Below are positions 343 to 60,119 of a stretch of DNA of 64,000 nt, one piece after another (within the stretch, counting starts at the first letter, position 1; every line of letters begins with the position of its first letter). The stretch lies in NCBI GenBank assembly GCA_963832085.1, contig CAWHSU010000003.1:22229-86228 (forward strand), read 5' to 3'. Under the pieces are notes generated by a model that was given only the letters and a program-made list of their open reading frames with translations, was not told the DNA's origin and did not search any database. Both the position numbers and the translations under genes were made by a program. This DNA comes from an uncultured Actinomycetes bacterium (GTDB lineage: Bacteria; Actinomycetota; Thermoleophilia; Solirubrobacterales; 70-9).

Positions 343-416
343 GCCCGCCTAGCTCAACCTGGGAGAGCGCCTCATTTGTAATGAGGAGGTTGCCGGTTCG
401 ATTCCGGCGGCGGGCT
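343..416 (+). tRNA. tRNA-Thr (anticodon UGU)
   Basis: The cloverleaf is readable. Acceptor is GCCCGCC/GGCGGGC, T arm is GCCGG-TTCGATT-CCGGC, anticodon stem is CCTCA/TGAGG with loop TTTGTAA (anticodon TGT). Discriminator is T and no CCA is encoded. Confidence 0.9.
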
Positions 417-16669: not shown

Positions 16670-17848
16670 ATGGACCTGACGCTGTCGCCAGCGGAGGAGG
16701 AGTTCCGCGACGAGGTTCGCACCTGGCTGCAGGAGAACCACCCCGGGCCGGAGCCCGAGGCCGGCCTCGACGAGGTGATGGCCTTCCGCAGCGAGTGGCA
16801 GCTGAAGTTGCACGCCGCCGGTTGGGCCGGGATCTCCTGGCCGAAGGAGTACGGCGGCCGCGGCGCGACGATGATCGAGCAGGCGATCTTCGCCGCCGAG
16901 GCATCGCGCCAGGAAGCGCCGAGCCCCGCCAACGTCCTCGGCCTGGCGATGGGCGGCCCCGTCGTCATCGCCCACGGCAGCGATGAGCAGAAGGCCCGTT
17001 ACCTGGAGCCGATCCTGACCGGTGAGGAGATCTGGTGCCAGGGCTTCTCCGAGCCAGAGTCGGGCTCCGACCTCGCTTCGCTGAAGACCCGCGCGGTCAA
17101 GGACGGCGACGAATGGGTGGTCACGGGGCAGAAGGTCTGGACCACCTTCGCCCAGTACGCCAAGTGGTGCATGCTCGTCGCCCGCACCGACCCCGATGCG
17201 CCAAAGCATCAGGGCCTCACCTACTTCCTGATGGACATGGAGCAGGAGGGGGTGCAGACGCGGCCGCTGGTCCAGATCACCGGTGAGGGCGAGTTCAACG
17301 AGGTCTTCTTCGAGGAGGCGCGTGTGCCCGACGCGAACGTCGTCGGCGGTGTCGGCAACGGCTGGGCGGTGGCGATCACGACCTTGATGAACGAGCGCGC
17401 CGGGCTTGCCTTCGGCGCGATCTCCCAGATCCAGAACAGCCTCGGCCGGCTCGCGAAGCTGGCGCAGGAGACCCAGGCAGGCGGCGGCACCGCGGCCGAC
17501 GACGCCTACTTCCGCCAGCGGATCGCCCAGCTCCACATCGAGGTGGAGACGATGCGCCTCAACGCCTACCGCGGCCTGACCAAGACGATGCAGTCGGGGA
17601 TCCCGGGGCCGGAGGGCTCGCTCGGCAAGTGGCAGTGGGCCGACATCAACCAGGACCTGACCGAGCTGGCGCTGGAGATCGAGGGCGCCTACTCGGTGCT
17701 GATGCGCGGCTCCGAGCACGCGGTCGCCGGCGGCGCCTGGCAGTACGGCTTCCTTCGCTCCCGCGCCAACTCGATCGAGGGCGGGACCACCGACATCCTC
17801 AAAAACATCATCGCCGAGCGGGTGCTCGGCCTGCCGAGGCTGCGGTAG
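16670..17848 (+). CDS. acyl-CoA dehydrogenase
   Basis: ACAD N-terminal, middle and C-terminal domain pattern (WCQGFSEPESGSDLASL, GQKVWTTFA, IEGGTTDILKNIIAERVLGLP). Confidence 0.9.
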   Translation: MDLTLSPAEEEFRDEVRTWLQENHPGPEPEAGLDEVMAFRSEWQLKLHAAGWAGISWPKEYGGRGATMIEQAIFAAEASRQEAPSPANVLGLAMGGPVVIAHGSDEQKARYLEPILTGEEIWCQGFSEPESGSDLASLKTRAVKDGDEWVVTGQKVWTTFAQYAKWCMLVARTDPDAPKHQGLTYFLMDMEQEGVQTRPLVQITGEGEFNEVFFEEARVPDANVVGGVGNGWAVAITTLMNERAGLAFGAISQIQNSLGRLAKLAQETQAGGGTAADDAYFRQRIAQLHIEVETMRLNAYRGLTKTMQSGIPGPEGSLGKWQWADINQDLTELALEIEGAYSVLMRGSEHAVAGGAWQYGFLRSRANSIEGGTTDILKNIIAERVLGLPRLR

Positions 17849-18973
17849 ATGTACTTCGACCTCACCGACGAGCAGCAGGCGATCAAGTCGACCGCCCACG
17901 ACTTCCTCTCCTCGCGCTTCAAATCCGACCGCATCCGGGAGATCGCTGAGAGCGAGAGCGGCTTCGACGAGAGCGGCTGGAGGGAGATGGCCGAGCTCGG
18001 CTGGGCCGGGCTGGCGCTGCCGGAGGAGTGGGGTGGACAGGGACTGGGGATCGTCGACCTGGCGGTGCTCTTCGAGGAGATGGGCTACGCCCTCGCTCCC
18101 TCGCCGCTGCTCTCCAACACGGTCGTCGGCTTGGTGCTCGCCGCCGGCGGCTCCGACGAGCAGCGCGAGCGCTACCTGGCGCCGCTCGCCGCCGGTGAGT
18201 TGCGCGCCACGCCGGCCTTGGTCGACGCCGGCGCAGCGGCGGAGCCGGGGATGTTCACGCTGGACGCCGAGTCGGCTGGCGACGGCGTCGTCCTCAACGG
18301 CGAAAAGACGCTGGTGATGGACGCGGCGAGTGCCGACCTCTTCCTCGTCGCCACCTCCGACGGCCGCCGCCACCTCGTCGAGAAGGGGGCCGAGGGCGTC
18401 ACGGTGATACCCGAGGAGTCGATCGACCTCACCCGCCGCCTCTCCTCGGTCCGGCTCGACGCAGTCCAGGTCGCCCCGGAGGCGACGCTGCCGGGTGAGG
18501 GATCTGACTACTTCCCGGTCCTGCACCGCGCCTGCGTGGCGCTCGCGGCCGAGTCCACCGGGGTCGCCCAGCGCTCGCTGGAGATGTCGGTCGCCTATGC
18601 CAAAGACCGCCAGCAGTTCGGGCGGCCGATCGGCGCCTACCAGGCCGTCTCCCACCGCTGCGCGCAGATGCTGTTGGAGACCGAGAACTCCCGCTCCGCC
18701 GTCTACGGCGCCGCCTGGGCCGCCGACGCCGAGCCGGAGTCGCTGCCGCTGGCGGCCTCGATGGCCAAGGCCTATTCCTCCGATGCCGGCTGGCGGGTGC
18801 CCGACGCGGCAATCCAGGTCCACGGCGGGATCGGCTTCACCTGGGAGCACGACCTCCACTTCTTCCTCAAGCGCGGCCGCGCCAACGCGGCCATGTTCGG
18901 CAGCGCCAAGTGGCACCGCGAGCAGGTCGCCGAGGCCGTCCTGGCGGGCGAGACCGCTCCGGCCAGCGCCTGA
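17849..18973 (+). CDS. acyl-CoA dehydrogenase family protein (second subunit candidate)
   Basis: TAG-ATG abuts the upstream ACAD. ACAD-like sequence is present throughout (YQAVSHRCAQM, IQVHGGIGFTWEHDLHFFLKR). Confidence 0.85.
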   Translation: MYFDLTDEQQAIKSTAHDFLSSRFKSDRIREIAESESGFDESGWREMAELGWAGLALPEEWGGQGLGIVDLAVLFEEMGYALAPSPLLSNTVVGLVLAAGGSDEQRERYLAPLAAGELRATPALVDAGAAAEPGMFTLDAESAGDGVVLNGEKTLVMDAASADLFLVATSDGRRHLVEKGAEGVTVIPEESIDLTRRLSSVRLDAVQVAPEATLPGEGSDYFPVLHRACVALAAESTGVAQRSLEMSVAYAKDRQQFGRPIGAYQAVSHRCAQMLLETENSRSAVYGAAWAADAEPESLPLAASMAKAYSSDAGWRVPDAAIQVHGGIGFTWEHDLHFFLKRGRANAAMFGSAKWHREQVAEAVLAGETAPASA

Positions 18974-18984
18974 GCTGATCCAGG

Positions 18985-20013
18985 ATGGGCGCCCTCGATC
19001 GCATCTCCGTCGCCGCGATCGGAACGTCGGTTGCCGACCTCGAGGCGGAGACGCTGCGGGCCGAGGCCGCCGGCGTCGAGTGCGTTTGGGCGCCGGAGCT
19101 CTTCCGCAGCGCCGTCACCCAGGCCAGCTACCTGGCGGCGAAGACCGAGCGGATCGGGGTCGCTACCGGCATCGTCTGGGCCTTCACCCGCAGCCCCTTC
19201 ATCCACGCGATCAGCGCCCTCGACGTCGACGAGATGTCGGGCGGGCGCTTCCGGCTGGGGATGGGGGCGGGGGTCAAACGCCTCAACGAGACCTGGCACA
19301 ACGCCGACTACGGCCGGCCGGCGCCGCACCTGCGCGAGGCGATCGAGGCGACGCGGCTGATCATGCGCCAGGCCAGCGCGGGTGAGCCGATCCGCTACCA
19401 GGGCGAGTACTACGACATCGACATCAAGGGCTGGGTGCGCCCGCACCCGGCGCCGCGCGAGGCGGTGCCGATCTACACCGCCGCCGTGCAGGCAGGGATG
19501 GCGCGGATGGCCGGCGACGTCGCCGACGGGCTGATCGGCCACCCGATCCAGAGCCTGCGCTGGATCGACGAGGTCGTCGTCGATGCTTTCGAGGAGGGCC
19601 TGCGGCGCTCCGGCCGCCAGCGCTCCGACTTCGACTACCTGCCGACCGTCTGCTGCGCGATCGACGACGACGAGGGGCGGGCGATCGAGATGGCCCGGCG
19701 TACGATCTCCTTCTACGCGACCGTGAAGACCTACATGCCGCTCTGGGAGCTGCACGGCTTCGCCGACAACGCGGTCGCCGCCGGCGAGGCATTCCGTCGC
19801 GGCGATCTGGCGGCGGTCCCGGCCGCGATCAGCGACGAGATGGTCGAGGCCTACTGCGCCGCCGGGCCGCTGGACAAGGTCCGCGCCCGGGTCGAGGCCA
19901 CCGCCGAGCGCGCCGACGGCCTCTTCCTCACCCCGCCCACCTACTTCATCTCCCCCGAGGAGCTGAGCGAGTTCCAGAACCGCATCATCGACGCCTTCGG
20001 CCCGGAGGCGTGA
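18985..20013 (+). CDS. LLM-class (luciferase-like) flavin/F420-dependent oxidoreductase
   Basis: AEAAGVECVWAPELF...RIGVATGIVWAFTRSPF...GRFRLGMGAG is typical of LLM TIM-barrel proteins. Confidence 0.85.
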   Translation: MGALDRISVAAIGTSVADLEAETLRAEAAGVECVWAPELFRSAVTQASYLAAKTERIGVATGIVWAFTRSPFIHAISALDVDEMSGGRFRLGMGAGVKRLNETWHNADYGRPAPHLREAIEATRLIMRQASAGEPIRYQGEYYDIDIKGWVRPHPAPREAVPIYTAAVQAGMARMAGDVADGLIGHPIQSLRWIDEVVVDAFEEGLRRSGRQRSDFDYLPTVCCAIDDDEGRAIEMARRTISFYATVKTYMPLWELHGFADNAVAAGEAFRRGDLAAVPAAISDEMVEAYCAAGPLDKVRARVEATAERADGLFLTPPTYFISPEELSEFQNRIIDAFGPEA

Positions 20014-20328: not shown

Positions 20329-20604
20329 TCAGCCCCGTTCCATCTCCCGCTGGACGTCGGCCTCGGTGATCCGGTTGCTGGGCCCGTAGGCCTTCCAGGC
20401 CTGGACGACGACGGCAATGCCGACCCCGAGGATCACCCAGACCGGCCAGAAGTAGCCGCCGTCTCCCATCGCCCAGATGACGATGCAGACGAGGACGGCG
20501 AAGGCACCGCCGGCGGCCATTCCTTTGAAGTCCTGCTTCAGCTTCAGGCGCTGAATCGCGAGTTCGCGCGCCTGCTCGGGCTTGTCGATGCCTTCCTCGG
20601 CCAT
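20329..20604 (-). CDS. 2TM-domain small membrane protein
   Basis: A basic/acidic N-terminus is followed by two helices (GGAFAVLVCIVIWAM, WPVWVILGVGIAVVVQAW), as in the 2TM family. Confidence 0.65.
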   Translation of the reverse strand: MAEEGIDKPEQARELAIQRLKLKQDFKGMAAGGAFAVLVCIVIWAMGDGGYFWPVWVILGVGIAVVVQAWKAYGPSNRITEADVQREMERG

Positions 20605-20644: not shown

Positions 20645-21169
20645 TTAGGGGCAGATGACGATCAGGTGGAAGTCGGCGTCCTCGGGGCCGCCGTCTTTGT
20701 CTTTGGTCCGGACCTCGATCGCGTTTGGGTTGGCGGCGGAGGTGTTGGTCTGCGCGTAGCCCGAGTTCGGGACCGTGGTGCCGGCGTTGTTGCGGGCGGC
20801 GACGTTGGCGCAGGTGGAGACGTTGAACGGGAAGACGATGGTCACCGCTCCGCCGCCCTCGGTCGCCGTGATGCCGGTGCCGCTGGCGCGAGCCAGGGCG
20901 GCGTTGCCGGGGTTCGCCGGGTTGTTGACGACCGCCCAGAAGGTGTGGGTGGCGACCTTCGCGAACGGCACCGTGCCGAGCTTGTTGTTGTTGATCTGGA
21001 ACCCCGTCAGGGTGTCCTGCTTCAGCTTGCCGCCGCCGATCGTCTGCTTTTTGATCGCACCGCCGTTGATCGACTGCGCCGCGTATGCGGTTCCCGCCAG
21101 GGCGGCGACCAGTGCGATCAGCGCCACCACCATCGCCGGCGATGGGCGCCTCTTCATCAGCGTTTTCAT
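20645..21169 (-). CDS. secreted/anchored 174-aa protein, third gene of the RiPP-like operon
   Basis: An ATGA start-stop overlap links it to the upstream gene. Signal/anchor is PAMVVALIALVAALAGTAYA. The mature part is Asn/Gly/Thr-rich with two Cys (STCANV, VICP). No recognised domain. Confidence 0.65.
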   Translation of the reverse strand: MKTLMKRRPSPAMVVALIALVAALAGTAYAAQSINGGAIKKQTIGGGKLKQDTLTGFQINNNKLGTVPFAKVATHTFWAVVNNPANPGNAALARASGTGITATEGGGAVTIVFPFNVSTCANVAARNNAGTTVPNSGYAQTNTSAANPNAIEVRTKDKDGGPEDADFHLIVICP

Positions 21170-22731
21170 TCTGGATTCCCTTCCAGTCGTGGTCTTTCGT
21201 CAACCCGCCCAAGCGGCGGAAGCTGCGCCTGTCCATGGGGAGGCGCGAGTGACTCTTCGAGCAGTACCCGCTGATCGTGAAGATCAGCCTCGGAGAGGCG
21301 CCGTAGCTGCCCCTCGAGCGCTTCCAGGGGACTGGAACGAAAGCATTGGGGCTGGGCGATGCCATGGCGATCGCGAAGATCGCAGGAGTCGAGCTGCGTC
21401 CAGAAGTAGGGAACGTCTCCGCGAAGTAGATCGCCGACCTCGCTCCCGATGAGTCTTGCGCCGGGAGCTTCAAGTGACGATTGATGGGTCTCCAGGCTGG
21501 TGCGCAAAGCGTGTTCTCGCTCCTCTGTCGGAGCGGCAGTCGGCTGCAGAAGCTGGAAATACCGGACCACATAGTGCGCCGTGAAGCGAACGATGTGCCT
21601 GACTCGCAGCTCGCCGCTCCGGAGGCTGGTCTCGACCTCTCGCCGAACCCGGTCCCGCTCGCCCAGCATCACTCGGTAGCCGAGTTCGAAGCCGGCGAGC
21701 AGATCGGGGAGGAAACGGGACGGCTCGACCAGATGGCCGCTGTGGTCACTCCTGCGGTTGGCCGCGTGGAAGTAGGGCATGCGGTAGCCGACCATCTGCC
21801 GGCCCCCCTCGCGCAGGGAATGGACCGCCCAGCGCCGGCACGAGCCACCGCCTTGAAGGCCTGAGTTTGCAACGGTCGGGCTGGGCCTCTCGATCAGGCC
21901 GCTCGAGGTCACGTCGGTTGGCGAGATCACCTCGGGAAAGCGATAGAAGGCGGTCTCGAAGTCGATCGCCACTGGATGTGCCCCCACCGCCAGCACGTTT
22001 TCCATGTGCAGGTCCGTGATGTTGAGCGCGTAGGCGGCGGCGGCGAGGGCGCCGAAGCGGAAGTAAAAGCGCTCGAGCGCCCTCTTCGTATGGCTGCGCT
22101 GCGCCGTCGAGGCATAGGCGACGAAGCCGTACTCCTCGCCCAGCGGTGCGTACTTCAAGGTTGCGAAGAGAGCTTCATCCCCACGGCCGGGAGAGATCTC
22201 CGCCAGCATGGACGAGACCAAGTGATCGCTCCGCAGGTTGACCGGCTTGTAGACGACGGCCTGTTGGGATGAGAAACGAATGAGCACCGGGCGCTTGCCA
22301 TCGTTGTGGCTCTCGGACCCCAGCGCCTCGATGGCGCTGATTTCAGAGATCGCGGGAGAGCGCTGAAGCGGCAGCTGTGGGAGGTGAGAGCAGGCACGCG
22401 AGAGCGCCTCCGCCAGGTTCTTCGCCTGCCCCTCCAGGCGGCGCTCGGAAAGCTCCCTGAGCCAGGCGGTGTGGGAAGGATGGGCGATCGAGCTGGCCTG
22501 GGGGTCTTGGCCTTCCCTCCGGGCGATCCGACCGACCGCGGCCGCTACGACCGCCGTCGGAGTCATGGGTTCATCCGCTGCCTCTGCGAGTTGTTCCCGG
22601 ATCCGGCGGACCGCTGATTGGGACAGCGGCAAGGTCGAGGCTGAAACTACTTCAGCGAGGGCCGCCTCGACCCTCTGCCGGTGGGCTTGGGAAAGAGAGA
22701 CGGCGGGGTCAGCTGCAGGTGCCCGAGGCAC
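21166..22731 (-). CDS. stand-alone LanM-type dehydratase (lipid-kinase-like, DUF4135) domain protein without LanC cyclase domain
   Basis: GSESHNDGKRPVLIRFSSQQAVVYKPVNLRSDHL, ITDLHMENVLAVGAHPVAIDFETAF, RVRHIVRFTAHYVVRY and GDLLRGDVPYFWTQ all match the conserved blocks of class II lanthipeptide synthetase N-terminal domains. The ORF ends at 521 aa with no SxxxGxxG / WCxG / CHG cyclase motifs. Confidence 0.85.
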   Translation of the reverse strand: MPRAPAADPAVSLSQAHRQRVEAALAEVVSASTLPLSQSAVRRIREQLAEAADEPMTPTAVVAAAVGRIARREGQDPQASSIAHPSHTAWLRELSERRLEGQAKNLAEALSRACSHLPQLPLQRSPAISEISAIEALGSESHNDGKRPVLIRFSSQQAVVYKPVNLRSDHLVSSMLAEISPGRGDEALFATLKYAPLGEEYGFVAYASTAQRSHTKRALERFYFRFGALAAAAYALNITDLHMENVLAVGAHPVAIDFETAFYRFPEVISPTDVTSSGLIERPSPTVANSGLQGGGSCRRWAVHSLREGGRQMVGYRMPYFHAANRRSDHSGHLVEPSRFLPDLLAGFELGYRVMLGERDRVRREVETSLRSGELRVRHIVRFTAHYVVRYFQLLQPTAAPTEEREHALRTSLETHQSSLEAPGARLIGSEVGDLLRGDVPYFWTQLDSCDLRDRHGIAQPQCFRSSPLEALEGQLRRLSEADLHDQRVLLEESLAPPHGQAQLPPLGRVDERPRLEGNPE

Positions 22732-23308
22732 AGCACCTGGTGGTGTTCACGCCGTACTTCTCGATCAGCGTCGCTTCCAGGGACTTGAGGTCGAGTTCGT
22801 CCTGGCGCGAGGGGCTCTCCGTGAGCACGAGGTGGTAGGTGAATTCCGAATTCTCCAGCACGACGATCTGACGCGCTGGCGGCGAGTAGCCACGGCTCTC
22901 GAGCACCTTGCCCGGGTTGCGGATCAGCTCGGCTTTGAAATCGTCGTCGCTGAGGGAATCCGCGATCACGTCGCTCGGAAGCCAGCACTCGAGGCTGTCG
23001 TCGTCATGCATCTCCCGCGAGAGAATCTCCAGCAGGGACTCGCGCGAGAGCTGCGCCAGGTGTTTCTTGCGCGCCGGCAGCGCGAAGAATTTGATCTCCG
23101 CCGAATCGACCGCCACACAGAAGGTCTTGTTGTCAGGCCAGCGGGAAATCCGTTCCCGCAGCAAGCTGGTGGGATCGGTGAGTAGGAGCGCTCGCACCTC
23201 CGGGTCCGTCCAGGCGGCGGCCGTCACGCTTGCCGGCAGGATCGTCCAGTCCATGATCTCGGGAACCTCGAATCGGGTCTCGGTTTCGGACTGGGCCAAC
23301 TCTGGCAT
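22709..23308 (-). CDS. RiPP precursor candidate: two tandem nitrile-hydratase-like leader (NHLP) domains plus Cys/Ser/Thr-rich C-terminal core
   Basis: AAGGGA lies 7 nt upstream of ATG 23308. NHLP-like block 1 is AAAWTDPEVRALLLTDPTSLLRE...TFCVAVDSAEIKFFALPARK. Block 2 is SDDDFKAELIRNPGKVLESRGYSPPARQIVVLENSEFTYHLVLTESP. The C-terminus is LIEKYGVNTTRCCASGTCS. Confidence 0.75.
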   Translation of the reverse strand: MPELAQSETETRFEVPEIMDWTILPASVTAAAWTDPEVRALLLTDPTSLLRERISRWPDNKTFCVAVDSAEIKFFALPARKKHLAQLSRESLLEILSREMHDDDSLECWLPSDVIADSLSDDDFKAELIRNPGKVLESRGYSPPARQIVVLENSEFTYHLVLTESPSRQDELDLKSLEATLIEKYGVNTTRCCASGTCS

Positions 23309-23494: not shown

Positions 23495-24157
23495 CTAACT
23501 CGGCAAAGCGGAGACGAAGCGCTCGAAGGAGCCGATGTCGGTGACTGCAGGCCCGTGACCGGGCAGGATCAGGGAGGGCTCGAGCTCGGCCAGCTTGCGG
23601 ATCGAGCGCCGGTTCTCCGCCGGGTCGGGGGTGAGGTCGGCCGGGGGCTCGGCCAGCCGCGTCCGCATCGTCACGTAAGTGATGTTGCGGATCACGTCGC
23701 CGCAGAGCGCGACCCGGTCGGAGTCGCGGAAGAAGATCACCTCGCCCGGGGCGTGGCCCGGCGCGTGGACGACGCGGAAGCCGGCCACCTCGTCGCCCTC
23801 CTGAAGCACGCGGTCGACCTTGTGGGGCGGTCCCGTCCACATCTTGCCGAAGGCCTGGGCCACCGGCTTGGGGCTTGCCGCGACCGGCCGCCGCCCCTCC
23901 ATCGCGTCGACGTCGTCGGCATGGCAGGCGAGCGGAACCCCGCGCGCCTCGCAGACGGCCTTCGCGCAGCCCTGGTGGTCGGGATGGACGTGGGTGAGGG
24001 CGACCATCGAGATCTCCCGCCCCTCGAGCTCGGAGAAGATGCGGCGCTTGTCCCAGCGCCGGCCGGCGTCGATGAGAACGTCCTCGGCGAGGTAGACGTT
24101 GATCAGGGGGCGGGGTGCTTCCTTCAGCCGCCAGACGCCGGGAGCGAGGTACTTCAA
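23495..24157 (-). CDS. MBL-fold metallo-hydrolase
   Basis: ALTHVHPDHQG (HxHxDH) and later VHAPGHAPG and ILPGHGP. Confidence 0.85.
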   Translation of the reverse strand: MKYLAPGVWRLKEAPRPLINVYLAEDVLIDAGRRWDKRRIFSELEGREISMVALTHVHPDHQGCAKAVCEARGVPLACHADDVDAMEGRRPVAASPKPVAQAFGKMWTGPPHKVDRVLQEGDEVAGFRVVHAPGHAPGEVIFFRDSDRVALCGDVIRNITYVTMRTRLAEPPADLTPDPAENRRSIRKLAELEPSLILPGHGPAVTDIGSFERFVSALPS

Positions 24158-24402
24158 TGGGAGATCCCGAGCCCGTCGCGGGGCTCGCCGCTGTGCTGGG
24201 CGAGCTCTTCCAGGCGGGCGATCTGCCGCTCGCCTTCGAGCCGTGCCGGATGCCCCGCCGGCAGCGGCTCGATCAGGCGGCGGATCCGGTTGCGGACCTG
24301 GAGCGCGAAGTGGGGGGTGACGGGACCGGCGAGGGCACGGATGTCCTCGACCGTGATCTCCTGCGCCTGCCCGAGCAGCTCGGGGTTCTCGGACTCGCTC
24401 AT
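24154..24402 (-). CDS. hypothetical 82-aa protein
   Basis: 4-nt overlaps with both neighbouring genes suggest an operon. No recognisable domain. Confidence 0.45.
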   Translation of the reverse strand: MSESENPELLGQAQEITVEDIRALAGPVTPHFALQVRNRIRRLIEPLPAGHPARLEGERQIARLEELAQHSGEPRDGLGISH

Positions 24403-25718
24403 TCTTCGTCGCTTATTTTCGCCAGCTCGGCCAGCTCGTCGACTTCCGCCTGCTGGCCGACCTCGATCGCCTCCTGATCGCCGATCACCCAGACGTGGTT
24501 GTAGAAGGCGCGGGTGGGGTCGGTGGTATATCCGGGCTTCACGTCGAGGAAGTAGTTGCGGAGGTCCGCCGGGAGCGTAGCGGCGTTGTCGGTGAGGAGC
24601 AGCGGCCCCCAGGTGCCCGAGGCCGAGAGCGGCGCCGCGGCGGCGGCGTCGGCGGGGGAGTCGCTGCGGGCGAGGACGAAGCCGTGGCCGGGGTCGTTGA
24701 CGTTCCAGCCGAAGTTGCCGTCGCGATAACGGGCGAAGGCGAGGGCGTTGGCGACCGGGTCCTCGCCGCCCACGCGCTTGACCCGTTTTGCGACTTTGGC
24801 GACCTCGCGGACGACCTCGGAGGAGATCACCGAGGAGGGACCGAGCACGTAGACCGGCACCTTCGGGTGGTCTTCGAGGACGGCGACGGTGGCCGCAGGC
24901 AGCTTCTCCGTGTCGGCATAGAGCACCGGGTCGCCGGAGCGGGCGGCCCAGGCGGCGGCGGGCATCGCGAACTCCGGCTGGGAGCTGGAGGCGATGACGA
25001 TATGCCGCGGGGGTTTGCCGGTGAGGCGGTCCCGCAGGGCGGCGATCTGGGCGGCGGTGGCGGCGGATTCGCCGCTGTCGATCGGCACCGCGTCCCCCGG
25101 GTATGCCAGCCGCCCCACGGCGAAGAGCGCTGCGTTCCCGGTCGCCTCGCCGCCCTGCGGATCGAGCGCCGAAAGCGCTTCATCGCTCGTCTCCGGCAGC
25201 TCCTCCGAGTTCGAGAAGAGGATCGGCGTCCGCACCGGCGGCGCCATCAGGACGGAGGCGGCGATCGCGCCTGCCCAGTCCTCTTCGCCGACCAACGCCA
25301 CCGCCGCCGGACGCTGCTCGGGCGTGGTCGAGGGGAAGACGGCGAGGGCGACGGCGGCTGCGTTGGCGACCGGGTCGGAGCCGCCGATGCGGACCGTGTT
25401 GTTGGTCGCGAAGCTCGGATAGCCCAGCTCTTCGGCAGGCTGGGAGACAGGGGCCTCCGCGGGATCTGCGGTGTCCGCGGGGGCTGGCGTGGGGGCAGGG
25501 GAGGTGGTGCCCTTGTCGCCATCGCCGCCGCTGCCGAAGACGATCGCAGCCGCGATGAAGGCGAGCGCGAGTACGACGAGCGCCGCCAGCGCCTTCGGTG
25601 CCCCCGGCTTCGGCTCGCGCTTCTTCTCGGTCTCGGGGACGTCCGCGTTGATCGGCCGCTTCGGGATCACGGAAGGAAACGTATCGGGGTGCCTGCCGCC
25701 GGGAGGAGTAAAGTCCAA
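24399..25718 (-). CDS. membrane-anchored protein with cell-wall-binding-repeat-2-like repeats
   Basis: TM anchor is ALAALVVLALAFIAAAIVF. Modules repeat, such as RIGGSDPVANAAAVALAVFP ... PILFSNSEELP and RVGGEDPVANALAFARY ... PLLLTDNAATLP. Confidence 0.6.
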   Translation of the reverse strand: MDFTPPGGRHPDTFPSVIPKRPINADVPETEKKREPKPGAPKALAALVVLALAFIAAAIVFGSGGDGDKGTTSPAPTPAPADTADPAEAPVSQPAEELGYPSFATNNTVRIGGSDPVANAAAVALAVFPSTTPEQRPAAVALVGEEDWAGAIAASVLMAPPVRTPILFSNSEELPETSDEALSALDPQGGEATGNAALFAVGRLAYPGDAVPIDSGESAATAAQIAALRDRLTGKPPRHIVIASSSQPEFAMPAAAWAARSGDPVLYADTEKLPAATVAVLEDHPKVPVYVLGPSSVISSEVVREVAKVAKRVKRVGGEDPVANALAFARYRDGNFGWNVNDPGHGFVLARSDSPADAAAAAPLSASGTWGPLLLTDNAATLPADLRNYFLDVKPGYTTDPTRAFYNHVWVIGDQEAIEVGQQAEVDELAELAKISDEE

Positions 25719-25774: not shown

Positions 25775-27034
25775 ATGGATTTCGCACTGAACGAGGAACA
25801 GCTTGAGTTCAAAGCGCGGTGTCGCAAGTTCGCCGCCGAGGTGATGCGACCGGTCGCGCGCAAGCACGACGAAGAGGAGAGCATCCCCTGGGAGGCGATC
25901 AAAGAGGCGCGCCGACAGGGCTTTGGTGGCCTCGAGTCGATCCAGCGCAACGCCGCCGACCCCGAGGGTCAGATGCAGGTGATCTCGGCCGAGGAGTTCC
26001 ACTGGGGCTGCGCCGGGATCGCGCTGGCGATCAGCGGCTCCGGCCTCGCCGCCGCCGGCATCGCCGCCTCGGGCACCGGTGAGCAGATCGGCCGCTGGGT
26101 CCCCGAGTGCTTCGGCAGCGGTGAAGAGATCAAGCTCGGCGCCTACGCCGTCACCGAGCCGCAGGCCGGCTCCGACGTCAAGAACCTGAAGACGACCGCC
26201 AAGCGCGACGGCGACGAGTGGGTCCTCAACGGGACCAAGGTCTTCATCACCAACGGTGGCATTGCCGACGTCCACGTCGTCGTCGCCGTCGTCGACCCCG
26301 AGCTCGGGACCCGCGGCCAAGCCTCCTTCGTGGTCCCGAAGGGGACCCCCGGCCTCAGCCAGGGCAAGAAGGAGACGAAGCTCGGGATCCGCGCCTCCCA
26401 CACCGCCGAGATCGTGCTCGAGGACTGCCGCATCCCCGTCGATTACCTGCTCGGCGGCGAGGAGAAGCTGGAGAAGAAGCTGCAACGCGGTCGGGAAGGG
26501 AAGAAATCCCGCGGCGCCGATGCGCTCGCGACCTTCGAGATCACCCGGCCGCTGGTCGGCGCTTCCGCGCTCGGGATCGCCCAGGCTTCCTACGAGTGGA
26601 CGCTGGAGTACCTCGACGGCCGCTCCGAAGGCGGCGTGCCGATGCTGAAGGCGCAGCGGATCCAGCAGACGCTGGCCGACGTCGCCACCGAGATCGAAGC
26701 CGCCCGCCTGCTGGTCCAGCGCGCCGCCTGGATGGGGCGCAACGGCAAACCGATGACCGGCGGCCAGGGCTCGATGTCGAAGCTCAAGGCCGGCGACGTG
26801 ACGATGTGGGCGACGACGACGCTGATGGACCTGGTCGGCCCCTACTCGCAGAGCACCGATTGCCCGCTGGAGAAGTGGTTCCGCGACGCCAAGATCTACC
26901 AGCTGTTCGAGGGCACGGCCGAGATCCAGCGGATGGTCATCTCCCGCATGCAGGCTCGCGACTACGCCGAGCGCCTCGGCTACGCCGCCGAAGTCGCCGA
27001 GGAGACGATCAAGAAGGAGCCGGTCGCGGCCTAG
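25775..27034 (+). CDS. acyl-CoA dehydrogenase
   Basis: YAVTEPQAGSDVKNLKTTA, GTKVFITNGG and QLFEGTAEIQRMVISR. Confidence 0.9.
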   Translation: MDFALNEEQLEFKARCRKFAAEVMRPVARKHDEEESIPWEAIKEARRQGFGGLESIQRNAADPEGQMQVISAEEFHWGCAGIALAISGSGLAAAGIAASGTGEQIGRWVPECFGSGEEIKLGAYAVTEPQAGSDVKNLKTTAKRDGDEWVLNGTKVFITNGGIADVHVVVAVVDPELGTRGQASFVVPKGTPGLSQGKKETKLGIRASHTAEIVLEDCRIPVDYLLGGEEKLEKKLQRGREGKKSRGADALATFEITRPLVGASALGIAQASYEWTLEYLDGRSEGGVPMLKAQRIQQTLADVATEIEAARLLVQRAAWMGRNGKPMTGGQGSMSKLKAGDVTMWATTTLMDLVGPYSQSTDCPLEKWFRDAKIYQLFEGTAEIQRMVISRMQARDYAERLGYAAEVAEETIKKEPVAA

Positions 27035-33742: not shown

Positions 33743-34710
33743 ATGCCGACCTACTCGAAGCCGAAGCTGCTCCTGCCCGTCCTCGTCCTCGCCGTGGCGC
33801 TTGCCTTTCCGGTCGCCGCGAACGCGACGTTGAGCTATGTCAAAGATCCGTTCAAGACGACGATCTACGTCGCCAACGACGATGGCAGCGGCGCGCGCAA
33901 GGTCGAGAAGGGGCACAACCCGCACGTCGCCCCTGACGGGCTCTCGGTCGCCTACCTCCACGAAGGTCCGAAGAACGCGCAGGAACTGAAGCTCGCTCCC
34001 GCGAGCGGCGGCGCCGGCAAGACCTTGATGACCAACCTGCGCGAAGCGTTCTACCTGGCCTGGTCGCAGGACTCGAAGACGATCGCGGCGCTGCGCGGGC
34101 CCGAACTCGGCAAGCGCAACCTGGTCCTGATCGACGTCGCCAGCGGCAAGCAGACGGTCGTCGCCAGTGGCTACTTCAGCGGCTTCAGCTTTTCTCCGGA
34201 CAGCACCGAAATCGCCTACGCGCGCTCCGGGAGCGAAAAGTTCCCGCCGCGCAGCGACGTCTTCCGCTTCCCGGTGCCGATCCCCGGCGTGGTCAACGTC
34301 CGCGCCCCGGAACCGGTGCGGCTGACCAGCGACCACCGTTCCTCCGATCCGCTCTGGGGCCCGAGAAAATCGTTTTCGTCAAGACCATTGACGGGAAAAA
34401 GCGCAAGTACGGGCCGAAGAACGAGCTCTTCTTGATGAACTCCCAGGGCAAGGGGGTCAAGCGCCTCACCAACACCAAGGTCCCACCGCTGCTGCAGGGC
34501 CTCTTCCCGACCGACTGGTCCGCCAACGGCGCTCGCCTGCTGGCCGAGTTCCAGGGCCAGGACACCAGCTACGCCGTCGCGTCAATCCGACGCGAACGGG
34601 CGCGGCCAGGAGCAGGTCGTCTCGGCACCGCTTCCACCGACGCCGGCCTCGGCGACGAAGCCGGCTTCAACCGCTCCGGCAGCCGATCCAATCTCCGCCG
34701 ACGGCACTGA
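33743..34710 (+). pseudogene. TolB-like PD40 beta-propeller protein, frameshifted near 34360
   Basis: A signal peptide is followed by PD40-like repeats (VAPDGLSVAY, WSQDSKTIA, FSPDSTEIAY). After ...DPLWGP the sequence continues sensibly only in the -1 frame (EKIVFVKTIDGKKRKYGPKNELFLMNSQGKGVKRLTN...TDWSANGARLL). A 1-nt loss in GGGGCCCGAG would explain this. Confidence 0.6.
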
Positions 34711-34712
34711 GC

Positions 34713-35009
34713 CGCTACACGATCAAGCATCGGGACGAATTCGAGCGGATGGAGGGGTCGGGCGACTGGCTTGGCGCACAGGCCTCGGACCTCGCCTGCG
34801 GCTCAACCGGTCAATCGGTCCAAGACGGTCCCCTACACGACGAGAGCGGCAGGTCGAGCCTACTGATCGAGGCGAGGCGCTCGGTCAGGAGGACACGGCG
34901 CCTGTCGACACCTTCGCTAGCTCGAGGAACCGCTCGACGATCGTCAGTCGCTTTGACGCTCGTCACGCCTCTGATCGGCGTAGGAGCAACAAGCGGCAGG
35001 CCACGCTAG
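34713..35009 (+). pseudogene. possible degraded cupin-domain gene remnant
   Basis: RYTIKHRDEFERMEGSGDWLGAQ...PLHDESG resembles the N-terminus and first metal-binding motif of small cupins. The rest is not protein-like in any single frame. Weak call. Confidence 0.3.
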
Positions 35010-35033
35010 GCTATTGCGGGCTTGACCGAGCCC

Positions 35034-35039
35034 TATAAT
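35034..35039 (+). promoter_or_regulatory. perfect TATAAT hexamer upstream of gltB (candidate -10)
   Basis: TATAAT lies 64 nt upstream of GTG 35103 in a ~70% GC context. GGGAGG lies 7 nt upstream of the start. No correctly spaced -35 was found. Confidence 0.3.
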
Positions 35040-35102
35040 CCCGTAACTCGTTAACCCGTCGCGCGCCCGCTCGAAGAAGGCGTGGAACCCGGGAGGTAAA
35101 AA

Positions 35103-38100
35103 GTGAAGACCCAGTCCGATCGCGCCGCTCGCGTCGAGCGCTACTCGCCAGAGCGTCCCTACCGTCCGCTCGTCTCACCGCCCAGCGTCGAGGACAAGGA
35201 CGCCTGTGCCATCTACGCCTCGGTCCGCAAGGACGCGACGCCGAGCCATGAACCGATCGAGCTGGCGATCCCCGCCCTGCAGAAGATGCTCCACCGCGCC
35301 GGCAACGTCGACGGCGAGGGGGACGGCTGCGGCCTGCTGCTCGACATACCGCGCAGGATCTGGGCCGAGGAGGTCCGCACCGGGGGGCACGATCCTTCCC
35401 TGGCCACGGATGACGCCTTCGCCGTAGCCCACGTCTTCATCGAGCGCTCTCAGGACGTCGAGAAGATCAAGCACGACGCCCGCGAACTGCTCGCCGAAGG
35501 CGGCTTCCGCGTCCTCGCCGAGCGCGTCGGCGTCGTCAACTCACCGGCGCTGGGCCCGACCGCGCGCGAGGAGGAGCCGATCTTCTGGCAGCTCGCCGGC
35601 CTCGTCCCCGACGCCGGCTGCCGCGACTCGGTCCTCTTCGACCTGATGATCACGCTGGAGAAAGAGCTCGACGTCCACGTCCCCTCGTTCTCCGCCACCA
35701 CCTGCGTCTACAAGGTGATGGGCGCGCCGAAGGTCCTCGGCGAGTACTACCCCGACCTCCGCGACCCGCGCTTCGAGACGATCGGTTGCTTCGGCCACAA
35801 CCGCTACTCGACCAACACCTGGCCCTCCTTCAAGCGGGTGCAGCCGTTCTCGGTCCTCGGCCACAACGGCGAGATCAACACGATCCAGCAGCTGCGCCAG
35901 GAGGCGAAGATGCTGGCGGTTCCGATCCAGCCCGACTCCTCCGATTCGCAGGACCTCAACCGCACGATCGACACCCTGGTCAGCCGCGAGGGCTTCAGCC
36001 TCGCCGAGGCGATGGAGATGGTGGTGCCGCCGATCGTCGAGGAGATCAAGGGCCTCCCCGCCGATCTGCACGCCTTCTACCTCTACCTGCACCAGACGAT
36101 GGGGCCGTTCGCCCAGGGCCCGGTGGCGCTGATCGCCCGCCAGTCCGACGAGTGCGTCTTCTCCGCCGACGCGATGGGTCTGCGTCCGCTCTGGCAGGTC
36201 GAGACCGAAGACGACTACGTCTTCAGCTCCGAGCCCGGCGTCGTCTCGGTCGCGAAGATGTGCTCGGAGCCGAAGCCGCTCGCCCCGGGCGAGAAGGCGC
36301 TGGTCCTGATCGACCGCGCCGGGCGCAACTCGACCCTGCACCCGCACGACGAGATGCTGCGGATCGTCCGCGACCGCTGGCTGGCTCGCAACGGCATCGA
36401 GGCGATGGCCGCCTACGACCGCGCCCTGGAGACCGGCGGCCCGCTCGAGGGCAAGGACGTCCCCGGCTACTCCGACGCCGGCCCCGAGGAGCCGGTCAAG
36501 GTCTCCGACCGCGTCCTCGCCGGCTTCGGCTGGCAGCGCGACGACGTCAAACTGGTCCAGCAGATGGCCTCCAACGGGGCCGAGCCGGTCGGCTCGCTCG
36601 GCTACGACGGCCCGCTGGCGGCGCTCTCGCCCGAGCGGCAGAACCTCGCCGACTACTTCAAGGAGACGGTCGCCGTCGTCACCAACCCGGCGATCGACCG
36701 CGAACGCGAGATGGAGCACTTCTCGACCCGGACCCTGCTCGGGCGGCGCCCCTCCCCGGACAACGCGGGCGAGGACACCGGCACCGTCGAAACTCGGCTT
36801 CCCGGTCGTCCTCGGCGGCCACCACGGCCTGGCGCCGCTCGCCGACAAGACCTACCGGGCGATCGCGCGCGAGCACGACACCTACCTGCTCGAGGACCTC
36901 TGGGAGGAGTTCGGCGGCCGCGCCGGCGCCGTCGACATCTCCCTGCTGGAGTCGGAGACGACCCGGGGCGCGATAGAGCGGGTCAAGCAGGAGGCGGTGA
37001 AGAAGGTCCGCAACGGCTGCGAGCTGCTGGTCCTCACCGACCGCACCGTCTACGACGCCGAGCGGCGCTACCTCGACCCGCACCTGGCGACCTCGGCGAT
37101 CGACCAGGCGCTGAAGCAGTTCAAAGTCGAGACCGGCGAAGTCAACCTGCGGCGGCGCTGCGGCATCGTCCTGCGCTCGGCCGCGATCCGCAACGTCCAC
37201 GACGTGATGCTCGCGCTCGGCCTCGGCGCCAACGGCGTCTGCCCGTACACGATGGTCGAGGTGATCTGCGTCGAGGACTACGAGTCCGACGTCTCCAACC
37301 TCTGCGCGGCGCTGCGCAAAGGGATCGAGAAAGTGATCTCGACGATCGGCATCCACGAGGTCCGCGGCTACGCGCGCCAGTTCAGCTCGATCGGGATCAA
37401 GCCCGAGCTGGCCGAGATCTTCCAGACCGAGTTCTACGCCGCCTCCGAGAAGGCGGGGACCGGCTTCGCCGACCTCGACGAGGACACCAACGCCCGCGCC
37501 CACGCCCTCAGCGGCGACGAGGCGGCGGCGAAACCGGCGAAGACGTTCCGCTTCTACCCGAAGGTCTACAAGGCCGCGATCGCGACCGCGAACGGCTCCG
37601 GGACCTACGAGGAGTACTCGCAGAAGGTCCGCGACCTGGAGAAGCAGAGCCCGATCTCGATGCGCCACATCATGGGGCTGGTGGGCGATCGGGAGCCTCT
37701 GAAGGACGCAAGCGTCGTCGACGCCGGTGTCGGCCACCACGACTACCCGATCGTGATCTCCTCGATGAGCTTCGGCTCGCAGTCCGAGCCGGCCTTCCGC
37801 GCCTACGCCGACGCGGCGAAGGCGACCAACATCCTCTGCATGAACGGCGAGGGTGGCGAGATCCGCGACATGTACGGGCAGTACCGCAACTGGCGCGGGC
37901 AGCAGGTTGCCTCGGGACGCTTCGGCGTCTCGGCGGAGATGCTGAACAGCTCCTACGTCGCCGAGATCAAGATCGGCCAGGGCGCCAAGCCCGGCGAGGG
38001 CGGTCACCTGCCCGGCAAGAAGGTCTCGGAGAAGGTCGCCGCCGCGCGTAACGCCTCGCCCGGCACCGACCTGATCTCGCCCTCCAACAACCACGACCTC

Positions 38101-39768
38101 TACTCGATCGAGGACCTGGCCGAGCTGATCGACGAGCTGAAGACCGTCAACCCGGACGTGCGGGTCTCGGTCAAGGTGCCGGTGGTGCCGAACATCGGCA
38201 CGATCGGCCTCGGGATCGCCAAGGCCGGCGCCGACATCATCACCCTCTCGGGCTTCGAGGGGGGGACCGGTGCGGCGCGCCAGCACGCGCTGCGCCACGT
38301 CGGGCTGCCGAGCGACATCGGCACCCGCGCCGTGCACCGGGCGCTGATGGAGGCCGGGCTGCGCAACCGGGTCGAGATCTGGGCCGACGGCGGCTACCGG
38401 ACCGGCCACGACATCGTCAAACTGCACTGCCTCGGGGCCAACCGGGTCGGCTTCGGCACCCTGGCGATGGTCTCGATCGGCTGCACGATCTGCCGCGGCT
38501 GCCAGCTCGACACCTGCCACGTCGGGATCGCGACCCAGATCGAGACCCCCGAAGAGGCGGAGGCCCACGGGCTGAAGAAGTTCACCCCGCAGGAGGTCGA
38601 CCGCGCGGCGGAGAGCTGCGCCCGCTTCTTCGCCTCGATGGGCGAGGAGGTCAAGCAGGTGGTGGCCTCGCTCGGCTACGACCGCGCCCAGGACCTGGTC
38701 GGCCGCTACGACCTGCTGGAGCAGGTGGCGGCCAAGGACACGATCGACCTGGCGCCGCTGATCGAGCCGCTGGAGGAGCACCTCGACCTCGAACCGCTCG
38801 ACCTGCCGGTGGCCGAGGAGACCGAGGCGCGGGCCGAAGCCGGCCTCGTCGTCGCCCGGCCGATCCGGATGGAGGCGAAGGAGGCCTCGAGCCAGATCGC
38901 CGCGCTGGCGCCGGAAATCTGCGGCGGCACCACCATCCGCAGCCAGTTCCCACGTGCGACCGACGCCAACGACCGCGTCCTCGGCACCGAGCTCTCCGGG
39001 GCGATCGCCCGCTCGCGGATCTTCGAAGACGGTCCCGAGTCCAGCGACGAGGTCCTCGCCAGCCTCGAGTTCAACGGCGGCTCCGTCGCCGGCCAAGGGC
39101 TCGGCGCCTTCAACTCCTACGGGGTCAACATCCGCATCGAGGGCGGCGCCCAGGACGGCGTCGGCAAGACGATGCTGGGCGGGACGATCGCGATCCTCAA
39201 GGGCAAGGGTGCGCGCGGCCAGCGCCTCAACGGCTCCGTCGGCAAGTCCTTCGCCTACGGCGCCCAGCGCGGCAAGCTCTACGTCCAGGGCTCGGCCGAC
39301 TCGCGCTTCTGCATCCGCTTCTCCGGCGCCGACGTGGTGCTCGCGGGCGAGCCCGAGGGGCCGATCGACGACAGCCGCGGCGTCCTCGCCGACCGCGCCA
39401 ACGTCAAGGGCTTCGCCTTCGAGTACATGACCTCGGGCCGCGCCGTCGTCCTCGGCGACATCGGTCCCTGGGCCTGCGCCGGCATGACCGGCGGCCGCGT
39501 CTACGTCCGCCAGAACGCCTTCGGCCTCGACCGCGCCGCGATCGAACGCCGCCTCGGCAAGGGCGCCAAAGTCGAGCTCAAGGACCTCGACGCCGAAGCC
39601 CTGATCGACATCGACGACCTTCTCGGCGGCTACGCCTCTGAACTCCGCGCCACCGACCAGAACGAGGAGGCCGACCGCGTCCTCGACCTGGCCGCCGACG
39701 CCACCAGCAACTTCCTGATGATCGTCCCGTTCAAGGTCCAGGCGGACCCGAGCATCAGCACCGAGTGA
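35103..39768 (+). pseudogene. gltB: glutamate synthase large subunit, one frame break near 36786-36795
   Basis: GATase-2 domain (DACAIYAS..., GHNRYSTNTWPSF, LGHNGEINT). The central domain continues in the +1 frame after ...GEDTGTVE (LGFPVVLGGHHGLAPL...). FMN domain motifs are ISSMSFGS, KIGQGAKPGEGGHLPG, ISPSNNHDLYSIEDL and CRGCQLDTCHVG. A C-terminal GXGXG domain follows. Confidence 0.85.
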
Positions 39769-57389: not shown

Positions 57390-57932
57390 ATGACCGCCCT
57401 CAGCATTCGCGATGCCGACCCCGCCCGCGACGCCGCCGCCTGCGTTGCGATCTACGCCCCGCACATCGAGGAGAGCGCCGTCTCCTTCGAGGAACGGGCA
57501 CCGGAGGCGGGGGAGATGGCGACGCGGATCGAGCGCTACGGCGCCAGCCACGCCTGGCTTGTCGCCGAGATCGAGGGGGAGGTGGTCGGTTACGCCTACG
57601 CGACCGCCTTCAACGAGCGGCCCGCCTACCGCTGGAGCGCCAGTGTCTCCGTCTACGTCGGCGAGAGCGCTCGCGGCCACGGCGTCGGCCGCGCCCTCTA
57701 CGAAGCCCTCTTCGACCGCCTGCGCGAGCGCGGCTTCCGCATGGCCTGCGCCGGGATCACGCTGCCGAACGAGGCGAGCGTCGGCCTGCACGAGAGCCTC
57801 GGCTTCGAGCGGGTGGGGGTGAACCGCGAGATCGGCTGGAAGCACGGCGCCTGGCACGACGTCGGCTGGTACCAGCTGGAGCTGGCGCCGGCGGGGGAGG
57901 GGCCGCCCCCGGAGCCCCAACTGCCGGGCTGA
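57390..57932 (+). CDS. GNAT N-acetyltransferase, phosphinothricin/arsinothricin acetyltransferase-like
   Basis: IRDADPARDAAACVAIYAPHIEESAVSFEE..., GYAYATAFNERPAYRWSASVSVYV and RGHGVGRALYEALF are typical of the PAT subfamily. Confidence 0.8.
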   Translation: MTALSIRDADPARDAAACVAIYAPHIEESAVSFEERAPEAGEMATRIERYGASHAWLVAEIEGEVVGYAYATAFNERPAYRWSASVSVYVGESARGHGVGRALYEALFDRLRERGFRMACAGITLPNEASVGLHESLGFERVGVNREIGWKHGAWHDVGWYQLELAPAGEGPPPEPQLPG

Positions 57933-59594: not shown

Positions 59595-60119
59595 TTACGG
59601 TCCCGACGGCCGCAGTCGGAAGAGCAGGTGGGGCAGGCCGGCGTGGATGGCCTCCCCGTCCTTCGCGAACCCCACTTTCTCCGCCACCCGCCGGGAGGCG
59701 AGGTTCGCCGGCAGCACCAGTGCGATCACCTCCTCGAAGCGCAGCTCGACCGCCCACTCGACCGCCGCTGCCGCCGCCTCGGTCCCCAATCCTCGGCCGT
59801 GGAGGCGGGGCTCGATGCTCCAGGGAAGCTCGACCTGGGCGGTGCCCTCGACCGAGGTCCAGGCGAGGCCGCCGCGGCCGGCGAACTCGCCGCTCTCCTT
59901 CTCGATCAGGACCCAGGGCCCGAAGCCGTGGTCGGCCCAGTGGGCGCAGTCGCCTTCGACCAGCTCGTCGAGCACCCGTGCCTCGAACGGCGGCAGCGGC
60001 GGCGGGCGCAGCCACCTTTCGACGACGGGATGTGTGAAGTGGGCATGGTAGGCGGCCCGGTCCTCAGGGGTCGGCCGACGGGCCAAAAGCCGCCGCGTCT
60101 GCCGTGCCCCGTCCGCCAA
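59595..60119 (-). CDS. GNAT-family N-acetyltransferase (RimJ/RimL-like)
   Basis: GFGPWVLIEKESGEFAGRGGL... and HGRGLGTEAAAAAVEWA (acetyl-CoA motif). Confidence 0.8.
   Translation of the reverse strand: MADGARQTRRLLARRPTPEDRAAYHAHFTHPVVERWLRPPPLPPFEARVLDELVEGDCAHWADHGFGPWVLIEKESGEFAGRGGLAWTSVEGTAQVELPWSIEPRLHGRGLGTEAAAAAVEWAVELRFEEVIALVLPANLASRRVAEKVGFAKDGEAIHAGLPHLLFRLRPSGP

Follow-up and report, generated by a model that had tools for sequence, protein, structure and literature searches.

In a 64,000-nucleotide stretch of DNA from an uncultured Actinomycetes bacterium (contig CAWHSU010000003.1; the whole stretch is called the window below), two overlapping genes appear to encode a free-standing peptide-modifying enzyme and its dedicated substrate. 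The enzyme is a stand-alone LanM-type kinase/dehydratase of the DUF4135 family that has no lanthipeptide cyclase domain. The protein encoded directly upstream of it carries the ten-residue motif TTRCCASGTC near its C-terminus. The pair appears to belong to a small undescribed family, in which one clade of such enzymes is always found beside a precursor with a near-invariant Cys-rich motif and in which no cyclase gene is found nearby. We favor the reading, with a probability of roughly 60%, that the enzyme is a functional class-II-type peptide kinase/dehydratase dedicated to the upstream protein, and that dehydration of the motif would be followed by the formation of rings without a cyclase. 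The enzyme gene had been singled out by an earlier, sequence-only reading of the window, which described it as a LanM-type dehydratase lacking a cyclase and named three possible outcomes: spontaneous ring formation, a cyclase supplied in trans, or a phospho- or dehydro-peptide as the end product. The coordinates of all features are collected in Table 1.

The strongest evidence for a dedicated substrate is the strict coupling of the enzyme to the motif. In the window and in each of the 21 stand-alone DUF4135 loci there is a single occurrence of the family motif, [ST]T[KR]CCA[ST]GTC, which lies just upstream of the enzyme gene and on its strand; none of the 13 canonical LanM loci contains the motif. 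The proposed family is delimited by this arrangement, with a DUF4135-only enzyme of 430-520 residues. The coupling suggests that the tail bearing the motif is the substrate of the enzyme and that its hydroxyls and thiols are what matter. This bears out the earlier suggestion that the adjacent gene is the likely precursor. Exact protein look-ups, and not the motif, led to 17 of the 21 loci (L001-L008, L022, L023, L029-L034), 15 of them via the enzyme and two via the precursor; these loci are only partly independent, several being near-duplicates of one another. Less weight is given to the five loci L024-L028, which came from a scan that had the motif among its patterns; two of these, L025 and L026, end before the enzyme gene or barely extend to it. 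Outside the motif the precursors diverge to 25-38% identity. In an alignment of the precursors with a mean column identity of 35%, the only invariant columns belong to the motif (T, C, C, A, G, T, and C), whose other two hydroxyl positions vary between Ser and Thr only. The contigs that carry the pair span 34-70% G+C. Relatives were gathered by word-indexed protein searches, which gave at least 12 and at least 19 relatives, and by a metagenome scan with a precursor profile, which gave at least five loci. A literature search for the core motif found no relevant paper.

The precursor is a full-size two-domain protein and not a short leader peptide. It matches the NHLP leader model TIGR03793 in two stretches with 56.8 bits (cut-off 50.9), and its tail ends in GVNTTRCCASGTCS. 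A structure model of the precursor (predicted local distance difference test, pLDDT, 81) consists of two repeats of three helices and a β-hairpin, followed by a further helix and a disordered tail. The best fold matches in the PDB are whole nitrile hydratase alpha subunits (E 5.6e-6, ~155 aligned columns). This agrees with sequence matches of both halves of the precursor: residues 31-99 resemble nitrile hydratase alpha 125-193, and residues 101-161 resemble alpha 31-96. The precursor of L031 and L032 is instead a 53-residue peptide that has no NHLP domain. Several distant precursors (L030, 8686-9495; L027, 2992-3639; L028, 602-1354) begin with signal-peptide-like sequences. Judged by eye, that of L030 has a twin-arginine RRKFL motif and those of L027 and L028 are Sec-like. 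Additionally, several distant precursors run on past the motif into Cys/His-rich or Gly-rich extensions. Given these signal peptides and extensions, the product may be the modified protein as a whole and not a peptide released from it.

The enzyme is identified by its match to Pfam DUF4135 (PF13575; E 2.5e-50, 172 bits), in which residues 91-445 cover positions 4-377 of the 378 in the profile. DUF4135 is the sole Pfam domain detected in this single-domain protein. The coordinates, length, and minus-strand orientation given for its open reading frame (ORF) by the sequence-only reading were confirmed, and all of the motifs quoted there are present in the translation. The NCBIfam LanM model TIGR03897 scores the enzyme at 193.6 bits, below its 304-bit cut-off, and matches in its N-terminal part only. 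In pairwise alignments, enzyme residues 103-264 and 375-495 correspond to CylM 215-371 and 503-619, and residues 128-267 and 343-493 correspond to LicM2 188-323 and 420-569. The C-terminal ~370-410 residues of CylM and LicM2, which form the cyclase part, have no counterpart. By these alignments the enzyme ends at the dehydratase/cyclase boundary of both proteins, just where it had been said that canonical LanM proteins continue into the cyclase. An AlphaFold2 model of the enzyme has a pLDDT of 68 and a predicted template-modeling score of 0.71. Its sole strong PDB matches are LicM2 (E 1.8e-14) and CylM (E 4.5e-14), with query-normalized template-modeling scores of 0.57-0.59; the next matches are lipid and PIKK kinases at E ~0.01 or worse.

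The database call of the enzyme starts at the ATG at 22566 and gives 466 residues, and the 521-residue reading starts at the GTG at 22731. The longer form is probably correct, because homologues conserve the peptide that precedes the ATG and have only the GTG as a common start. The GTG sits within the Cys-Cys-Ala codons of the precursor, such that the two genes overlap by 23 nt.

A shortened LanM could in principle be a decayed and nonfunctional remnant that has lost its cyclase half, or an assembly artefact. The composition of the gene is what such a remnant might show. Over its whole length the G+C content at third codon positions is 0.74, and over the last 120 codons 0.56-0.63, whereas flanking genes have 0.92-0.96; the codon-usage score of the gene is low. 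Between relatives its amino-acid identity is 47-63%, against 90-97% for flanking genes (16670-20013 and 25775-27034, compared with the module at 21166-23308). Between close relatives synonymous divergence (dS) is 1.0-1.5 for the enzyme and 0.74-0.82 for the precursor, against 0.30-0.45 for most flanking genes. Weak codon bias and high divergence may reflect exchange of the module between lineages, or merely weaker codon selection. Five lines of evidence indicate that the enzyme is neither a pseudogene nor the product of a frameshift. First, 11 homologues from independent metagenome assemblies (46-77% identity, 348-518 residues, DUF4135 only) share a common end point in the alignment. Second, the identical protein is found in two further sequencing runs. 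Third, the ratio of nonsynonymous to synonymous divergence (dN/dS) against three relatives is 0.26-0.30, and the catalytic residues are intact. Fourth, in a profile search of 1.84 billion representative proteins, the best 27 matches are all of 517 residues or less and outrank the first full-length LanM, and 43 of the 150 best matches are shorter than 640 residues. Thus the enzyme appears to belong to a separate high-scoring clade of cyclase-less proteins, comprising at least about 27 representative clusters of the same architecture. Fifth, the ORF that follows encodes an unrelated secreted protein, and no LanC remnant is present in any downstream frame. The idea of a remnant or artefact is effectively refuted, and the check proposed earlier for a frameshift leading into a LanC domain turned up none. 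GTDB species genomes scanned with the enzyme profile returned canonical LanMs only, with best segments of 23-31% identity.

The catalytic residues are those of a dehydratase. Residue roles were taken from work on CylM (PMC4550811), and positions were mapped by the enzyme-CylM alignment. The residues for phosphorylation are all retained: CylM K274 in the sequence VVYKP, D347, H349, and N352 in TDLHMEN, and D364 in IDFET. Among the residues for phosphate elimination, H254 is retained, and R506 and T512 are retained as R378 and T384 in RVRHIVRFT, while D252 is replaced by Glu. Loss of T512 abolishes elimination in CylM (PMC4550811). Across 48 stand-alone proteins and 40 full-length LanMs, H254, D347, H349, N352, D364, R506, and T512 (as Thr or Ser) are conserved, and K274 is conserved with two exceptions, both of them stand-alone representatives, where Ile and Asn replace it. 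Glu at the D252 position, which lies in the P-loop, is found in 26 of 47 stand-alone proteins and in none of the 40 full-length LanMs, and it appears to mark the stand-alone clade. The enzyme thus looks like a complete dehydratase. The alignment to CylM had been put forward as a test of this assignment, and loss of the catalytic Asp and His residues would have counted against it; these residues and the Arg and Thr for elimination are all in place.

The same residues bear on whether the enzyme might be a kinase only, one that stops at phospho-Thr/Ser and leaves a phosphorylated tail as the product. There is a precedent in EmbM, a characterized LanM homologue that lacks a cyclase and yields a diphosphorylated peptide as its final product (PMC9259500; PMC9505594), and the residue replaced by Glu throughout much of the stand-alone clade is one that contributes to elimination in CylM. 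However, Asp to Glu is a conservative change, and EmbM has lost the elimination residues whereas the stand-alone clade keeps H254, R506, and T512 throughout. In addition, a phospho-peptide would leave the invariant Cys without a role, and EmbA contains no Cys (PMC9505594). A kinase-only enzyme is therefore improbable, and a phospho-peptide end product is the outcome of the sequence-only reading that the retained elimination residues argue against.

The search for a cyclase was made with a hidden Markov model (HMM) built from the C-terminal 430 residues of 91 full-length LanMs, which was run against six frames of the window and of all fetched loci. In 12 control LanM loci the model found the cyclase at E 1e-25 to 1e-95. 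In the 64-kb window it found nothing better than E 5.8, and in the related loci, including those fetched later, it found no match. Across all called genes of the window, Pfam scans detected no domain of the LANC_like, YcaO, radical-SAM, C39-peptidase, or ABC-exporter type, and no methyltransferase or hydroxylase domain was found in scans of the cassette and the window. The claim that the window has no LanC-like motif therefore stands. Around the module in L027, L030, and L033, Pfam scans and precomputed annotations of the 6-21 kb available contained no LANC_like domain, and the conserved LanC partnership that might have overturned the earlier claim was not found within about 10 kb of the module in independent lineages.

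A LanC-type or other cyclase encoded elsewhere in the genome might still close the rings, which would make this a split class II system. The sequence searched amounts to 64 kb, while the contig is at least 170 kb long, and Dhb (dehydrobutyrine) residues usually need enzymatic help to cyclise. Set against this are the lack of a LanC in the window and near the module of the unrelated L027, L030, and L033, the compactness of the L033 module, which is a unit beside Tn7-like transposition genes, and the composition of the L031 and L032 modules, which consist of just the 53-residue precursor, the enzyme, and a small GNAT acyltransferase. We consider a cyclase in trans unlikely. The metallo-β-lactamase (MBL)-fold zinc hydrolase encoded upstream of the precursor was also considered as a substitute cyclase; it was rejected as a general partner, being absent from L022, L027, L028, L030, and L031.

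In the favored reading, which is dehydration followed by cyclase-free ring closure, the enzyme would dock on the folded tandem-NHLP domain of the precursor and phosphorylate the four Thr/Ser residues of the flexible TTRCCASGTC tail in an ATP/Mg2+-dependent reaction, as suggested by homology and by the retained residues. Elimination of phosphate would then yield Dhb and dehydroalanine (Dha), a step to which the retained elimination residues point. The three invariant Cys would add to the dehydro residues to form (methyl)lanthionine-type rings without a dedicated LanC. This is the least certain step. Ring closure would be controlled by the substrate and possibly sped up by the dehydratase. The formation of rings without a cyclase is plausible because excised LanM dehydratase domains are active alone (PMC10676384), because the lanthionine ring of rosin A1 forms non-enzymatically, directed by a Dha-Dhb-X-X-Cys sequence with the dehydrating enzymes only accelerating it (PMC12291118), and because the motif fits that pattern. 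The segment [ST]-T-[KR]-C-C has the form (Dhx)2-X-X-Cys, where Dhx is a dehydro residue, and S195 and C198 have the common i, i+3 spacing.

Several points weigh against this reading. Thr-derived Dhb is a poor Michael acceptor, and without a cyclase the rings may close slowly or not at all. The search for a cyclase covered 64 kb of the genome, and a LanC gene could lie elsewhere. The cassette has no protease or exporter for leader removal. One residue implicated in phosphate elimination is changed, namely D252 to Glu, and the structure model of the enzyme is of moderate confidence only (pLDDT 68). The DUF4135 domain of CcaM works only with a partner domain fused to it. Near-invariance of the core is unusual for antimicrobial RiPPs (peptides made ribosomally and then modified post-translationally), and the motif could have another role, such as metal binding by its three Cys. 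Dehydration, ring formation, and ring topology are each inferred.

One such role would follow if dehydration occurs without rings. The dehydro residues would then stay as they are, the Cys would serve a metal site, a disulfide, or attachment of a partner, and the carrier, in place of a released peptide, would be an exported protein resembling the nitrile hydratase alpha subunit. The modeled fold of the whole precursor is that of the alpha subunit, whose active site is a Cys/Ser claw. Additionally, the motif is near-invariant across phyla, signal peptides of the Tat or Sec type are seen in some distant precursors and extensions after the motif in some, the cassette has no leader protease, and PoyF and CcaM are precedents for dehydration without lanthionine. 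However, free thiols beside Dha or Dhb tend to react, and no metal-insertion or activator gene is present. As read from the sequence, the C-C-x4-C spacing of the motif differs from the C-x2-C-x-C spacing of the nitrile hydratase claw, and the proposal that the tail is such a claw was rejected for this reason. Dehydration without rings is, like a cyclase in trans, not a likely explanation.

The architecture of a LanM without a cyclase is not new; it is established in PoyF/AerF and in EmbM. PoyF and AerF, of the polytheonamide and aeronamide proteusins, are free-standing cyclase-less LanM-type dehydratases with an NHLP-leader precursor (PMC9505594; PMC9060474), and dehydration is the expected chemistry there as it is here. 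A PDB search turned up no solved structure of PoyF or AerF. The residue that PoyF dehydrates is a single Thr at the N-terminus of a long core without Cys, whereas the core here is a ten-residue motif with three invariant Cys. PoyF clusters contain many radical-SAM epimerases and methyltransferases; here there are no radical-SAM enzymes, methyltransferases, or proteases. The precursor described here has two NHLP domains and is thereby set apart from the PoyF/AerF systems as these are described. EmbM, from the phospeptin cluster of 'Ca. Eudoremicrobium malaspinii', is likewise a single-domain cyclase-less LanM homologue beside its precursor in a minimal cluster (PMC9259500). Its elimination residues are lost and its product stays phosphorylated, whereas H254, R506, and T512 are retained here. 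The EmbM precursor has a Nif11 leader and no Cys (PMC9505594), whereas the precursor here has an NHLP leader and three Cys in the core.

Canonical LanMs such as CylM, LicM2, and ProcM share the kinase-like dehydratase fold and the catalytic residues with the enzyme. It differs from them in that it has no ~400-residue Zn-dependent LanC-like domain and ends at the equivalent of CylM ~619 or LicM2 ~569. It is also ~110 residues shorter than CylM at the N-terminus, where enzyme residue 103 corresponds to CylM 215. Some LanMs also act on NHLP-type leaders (PMC12537861). The selidamide/nostolysamide-type clusters, which contain an NHLP or Nif11 precursor, a GNAT, and a LanM, have a three-part layout like that of the wider family. 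Selidamide GNATs acylate the side chains of core Lys or Orn (PMC8784127). The selidamide LanMs are full-length with a cyclase, and their variable cores come after a Gly-Gly cleavage site; the cassette in the window has no GNAT and has Arg in place of the Lys. The LanMbC enzyme CcaM, of the dehydrazoles, has a divergent DUF4135 dehydratase and gives dehydro residues without lanthionine, and some of the precursors have NHLP-like leaders. CcaM is fused to a required Zn-free class III cyclase domain, whereas the enzyme here is a single-domain protein. CcaM also depends on YcaO-installed azoles and is leader-independent, and no YcaO is encoded in the window.

What is new is that this enzyme clade is paired with a fixed Cys-containing core motif. 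The system differs from PoyF/AerF and EmbM in its clade with Glu for Asp in the P-loop and in its use of one fixed three-Cys core across distant lineages. It also differs in its tandem-NHLP precursor of full alpha-subunit size, in having no radical-SAM or other proteusin enzymes, and in having no GNAT in this lineage. Genome mining for lanthipeptides usually takes LanC-like proteins, or DUF4135 proteins no shorter than 500 residues, as its starting point, and a short cyclase-less clade is easily missed. If rings form, the two genes would amount to a natural, minimal path to lanthionine-type cross-links that needs no cyclase, and this would be of use for substrate-controlled cyclisation and peptide engineering. 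A near-invariant core over contigs of 34-70% G+C suggests that its biological function is conserved, in contrast to most RiPPs, whose cores vary. A broader proposal, which we offer as tentative and on balance doubtful, is that a phylogenetically widespread clade of cyclase-less LanMs installs dehydro residues and thioether cross-links on one fixed ten-residue motif of a nitrile-hydratase-alpha-like protein, which would be exported via Sec or Tat in some lineages and acylated by a GNAT in many. The result would be a conserved cross-linked protein or cofactor-like tail with a housekeeping or signaling role, and not a variable antimicrobial peptide.

Table 1. Positions in the window of the precursor-enzyme module, its core motif, and the neighboring genes.
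Feature	Position	Strand	Identification
Stand-alone DUF4135 (LanM-type kinase/dehydratase) gene, 521 aa	21166..22731	-	Pfam PF13575; no cyclase domain
Precursor gene, 199 aa, two tandem NHLP domains and C-terminal tail bearing the core	22709..23308	-	TIGR03793
Core motif TTRCCASGTC, predicted site of phosphorylation/dehydration and of any thioether formation	22715..22744	-	Family motif [ST]T[KR]CCA[ST]GTC
MBL-fold metallo-hydrolase, 220 aa, glyoxalase-II-like	23495..24157	-	Pfam Lactamase_B, E 5.8e-25; intact HxHxDH
82-aa protein	24154..24402	-	No family match; conserved in syntenic loci at 71-88% identity
Membrane-anchored or secreted protein with CWB2 cell-wall-binding repeats	24399..25670	-	Pfam CW_binding_2, E 4.7e-19, three stretches
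174-aa secreted protein	20645..21169	-	Signal peptide in sequence; no family match
91-aa protein with 2TM domain, downstream neighbor	20329..20604	-	Pfam 2TM, E 1.1e-8; also in L004 and L005

The precursor and the enzyme are the conserved unit. The syntenic cassette of the window and its close relatives has the order CWB2 protein, 82-residue protein, MBL-fold hydrolase, precursor, enzyme, 174-residue secreted protein, and 2TM protein. The adjacency of these genes is not independent evidence of a link, because the syntenic loci have flanking genes that are 90-97% identical. The 174-residue, 82-residue, CWB2, and 2TM proteins were each considered as core components and were rejected, as they are confined to the syntenic high-GC lineage. 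The genes for the CWB2 protein, the 82-residue protein, and the MBL-fold hydrolase (23495-25670, minus strand) overlap by 4 nt at each junction and form a tight operon upstream of the precursor, which is seen in high-GC syntenic loci only. The closest PDB sequences of the MBL-fold hydrolase are 2zwr and 2xf4. The hydrolase, a lineage-specific neighbor, is present in the high-GC syntenic loci for which upstream sequence is available, and its link to the module is uncertain. The CWB2 protein, encoded by the first gene of the operon, has PDB sequence matches to Cwp6 and Cwp8 and is found in the same set of loci; its link to the module is also uncertain. Downstream of the enzyme, the ATG of the gene for the 174-residue protein overlaps the enzyme stop codon (ATGA). 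This protein is conserved in the syntenic loci and absent from distant loci. In L007 a homologue of it (1506-2027) lies upstream of the precursor instead. The link of the 2TM protein to the module is uncertain.

Elsewhere, a small GNAT acyltransferase is the recurring third partner and is found in L027-L034. The GNATs of L027-L030 are orthologous, with 31-39% identity. No GNAT of this type is present in the window and its high-GC relatives, where tblastn gave no match better than E 0.004. Two GNAT genes, at 57390-57932 (plus strand) and 59595-60086 (minus strand), lie ~35 kb from the cassette and are not homologous to the module GNATs by tblastn. Arg replaces the motif Lys only in loci that have no GNAT, and the window has Arg and no GNAT. 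Because the replacement is restricted in this way, it is suggestive, by analogy with the selidamides, that the Lys is the target of the GNAT, and the small GNAT of most other lineages probably acts on it. The L030 module adds a PhyH-type oxygenase.

Tn7-like transposition genes are found next to the module in L033 and L034. In a 393-kb contig of ~46% G+C, the precursor, GNAT, and DUF4135 genes directly adjoin Tn7-like genes (TnsA-like, integrase-core, TniB, and TniQ; L033, 13688-20667, and L028, 5403-10306), and the module may be transposon cargo. In the low-GC L027, genes for a cytochrome c and for a flavocytochrome c sulfide dehydrogenase flavoprotein (1216-2989) lie immediately upstream of the precursor.

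The rest of the window is a housekeeping chromosomal region that contains lysA/hom/thrC/thrB-like genes, plsC-gpsA, and genes for a sigma factor, a penicillin-binding protein, AddAB-like nucleases, glucose-6-phosphate dehydrogenase, and IspH. The domain content of the window points to a chromosome like that of a high-GC actinobacterium. A promoter and terminator scan of the 20-26 kb region found no promoter-like sites and two terminator-like sites, against 3.5 expected by chance. The call of a glutamate-synthase-like ORF at 36997-39768 starts at position 144 of the central-domain profile, and the open frame reaches back to 36310. The interval 34435-36997 contains no confidently called gene and has lower G+C, and the glutamate-synthase-like gene may be disrupted or miscalled. 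A tRNA at 343-416 (plus strand, 65.5 bits) is the only Rfam match in the window.

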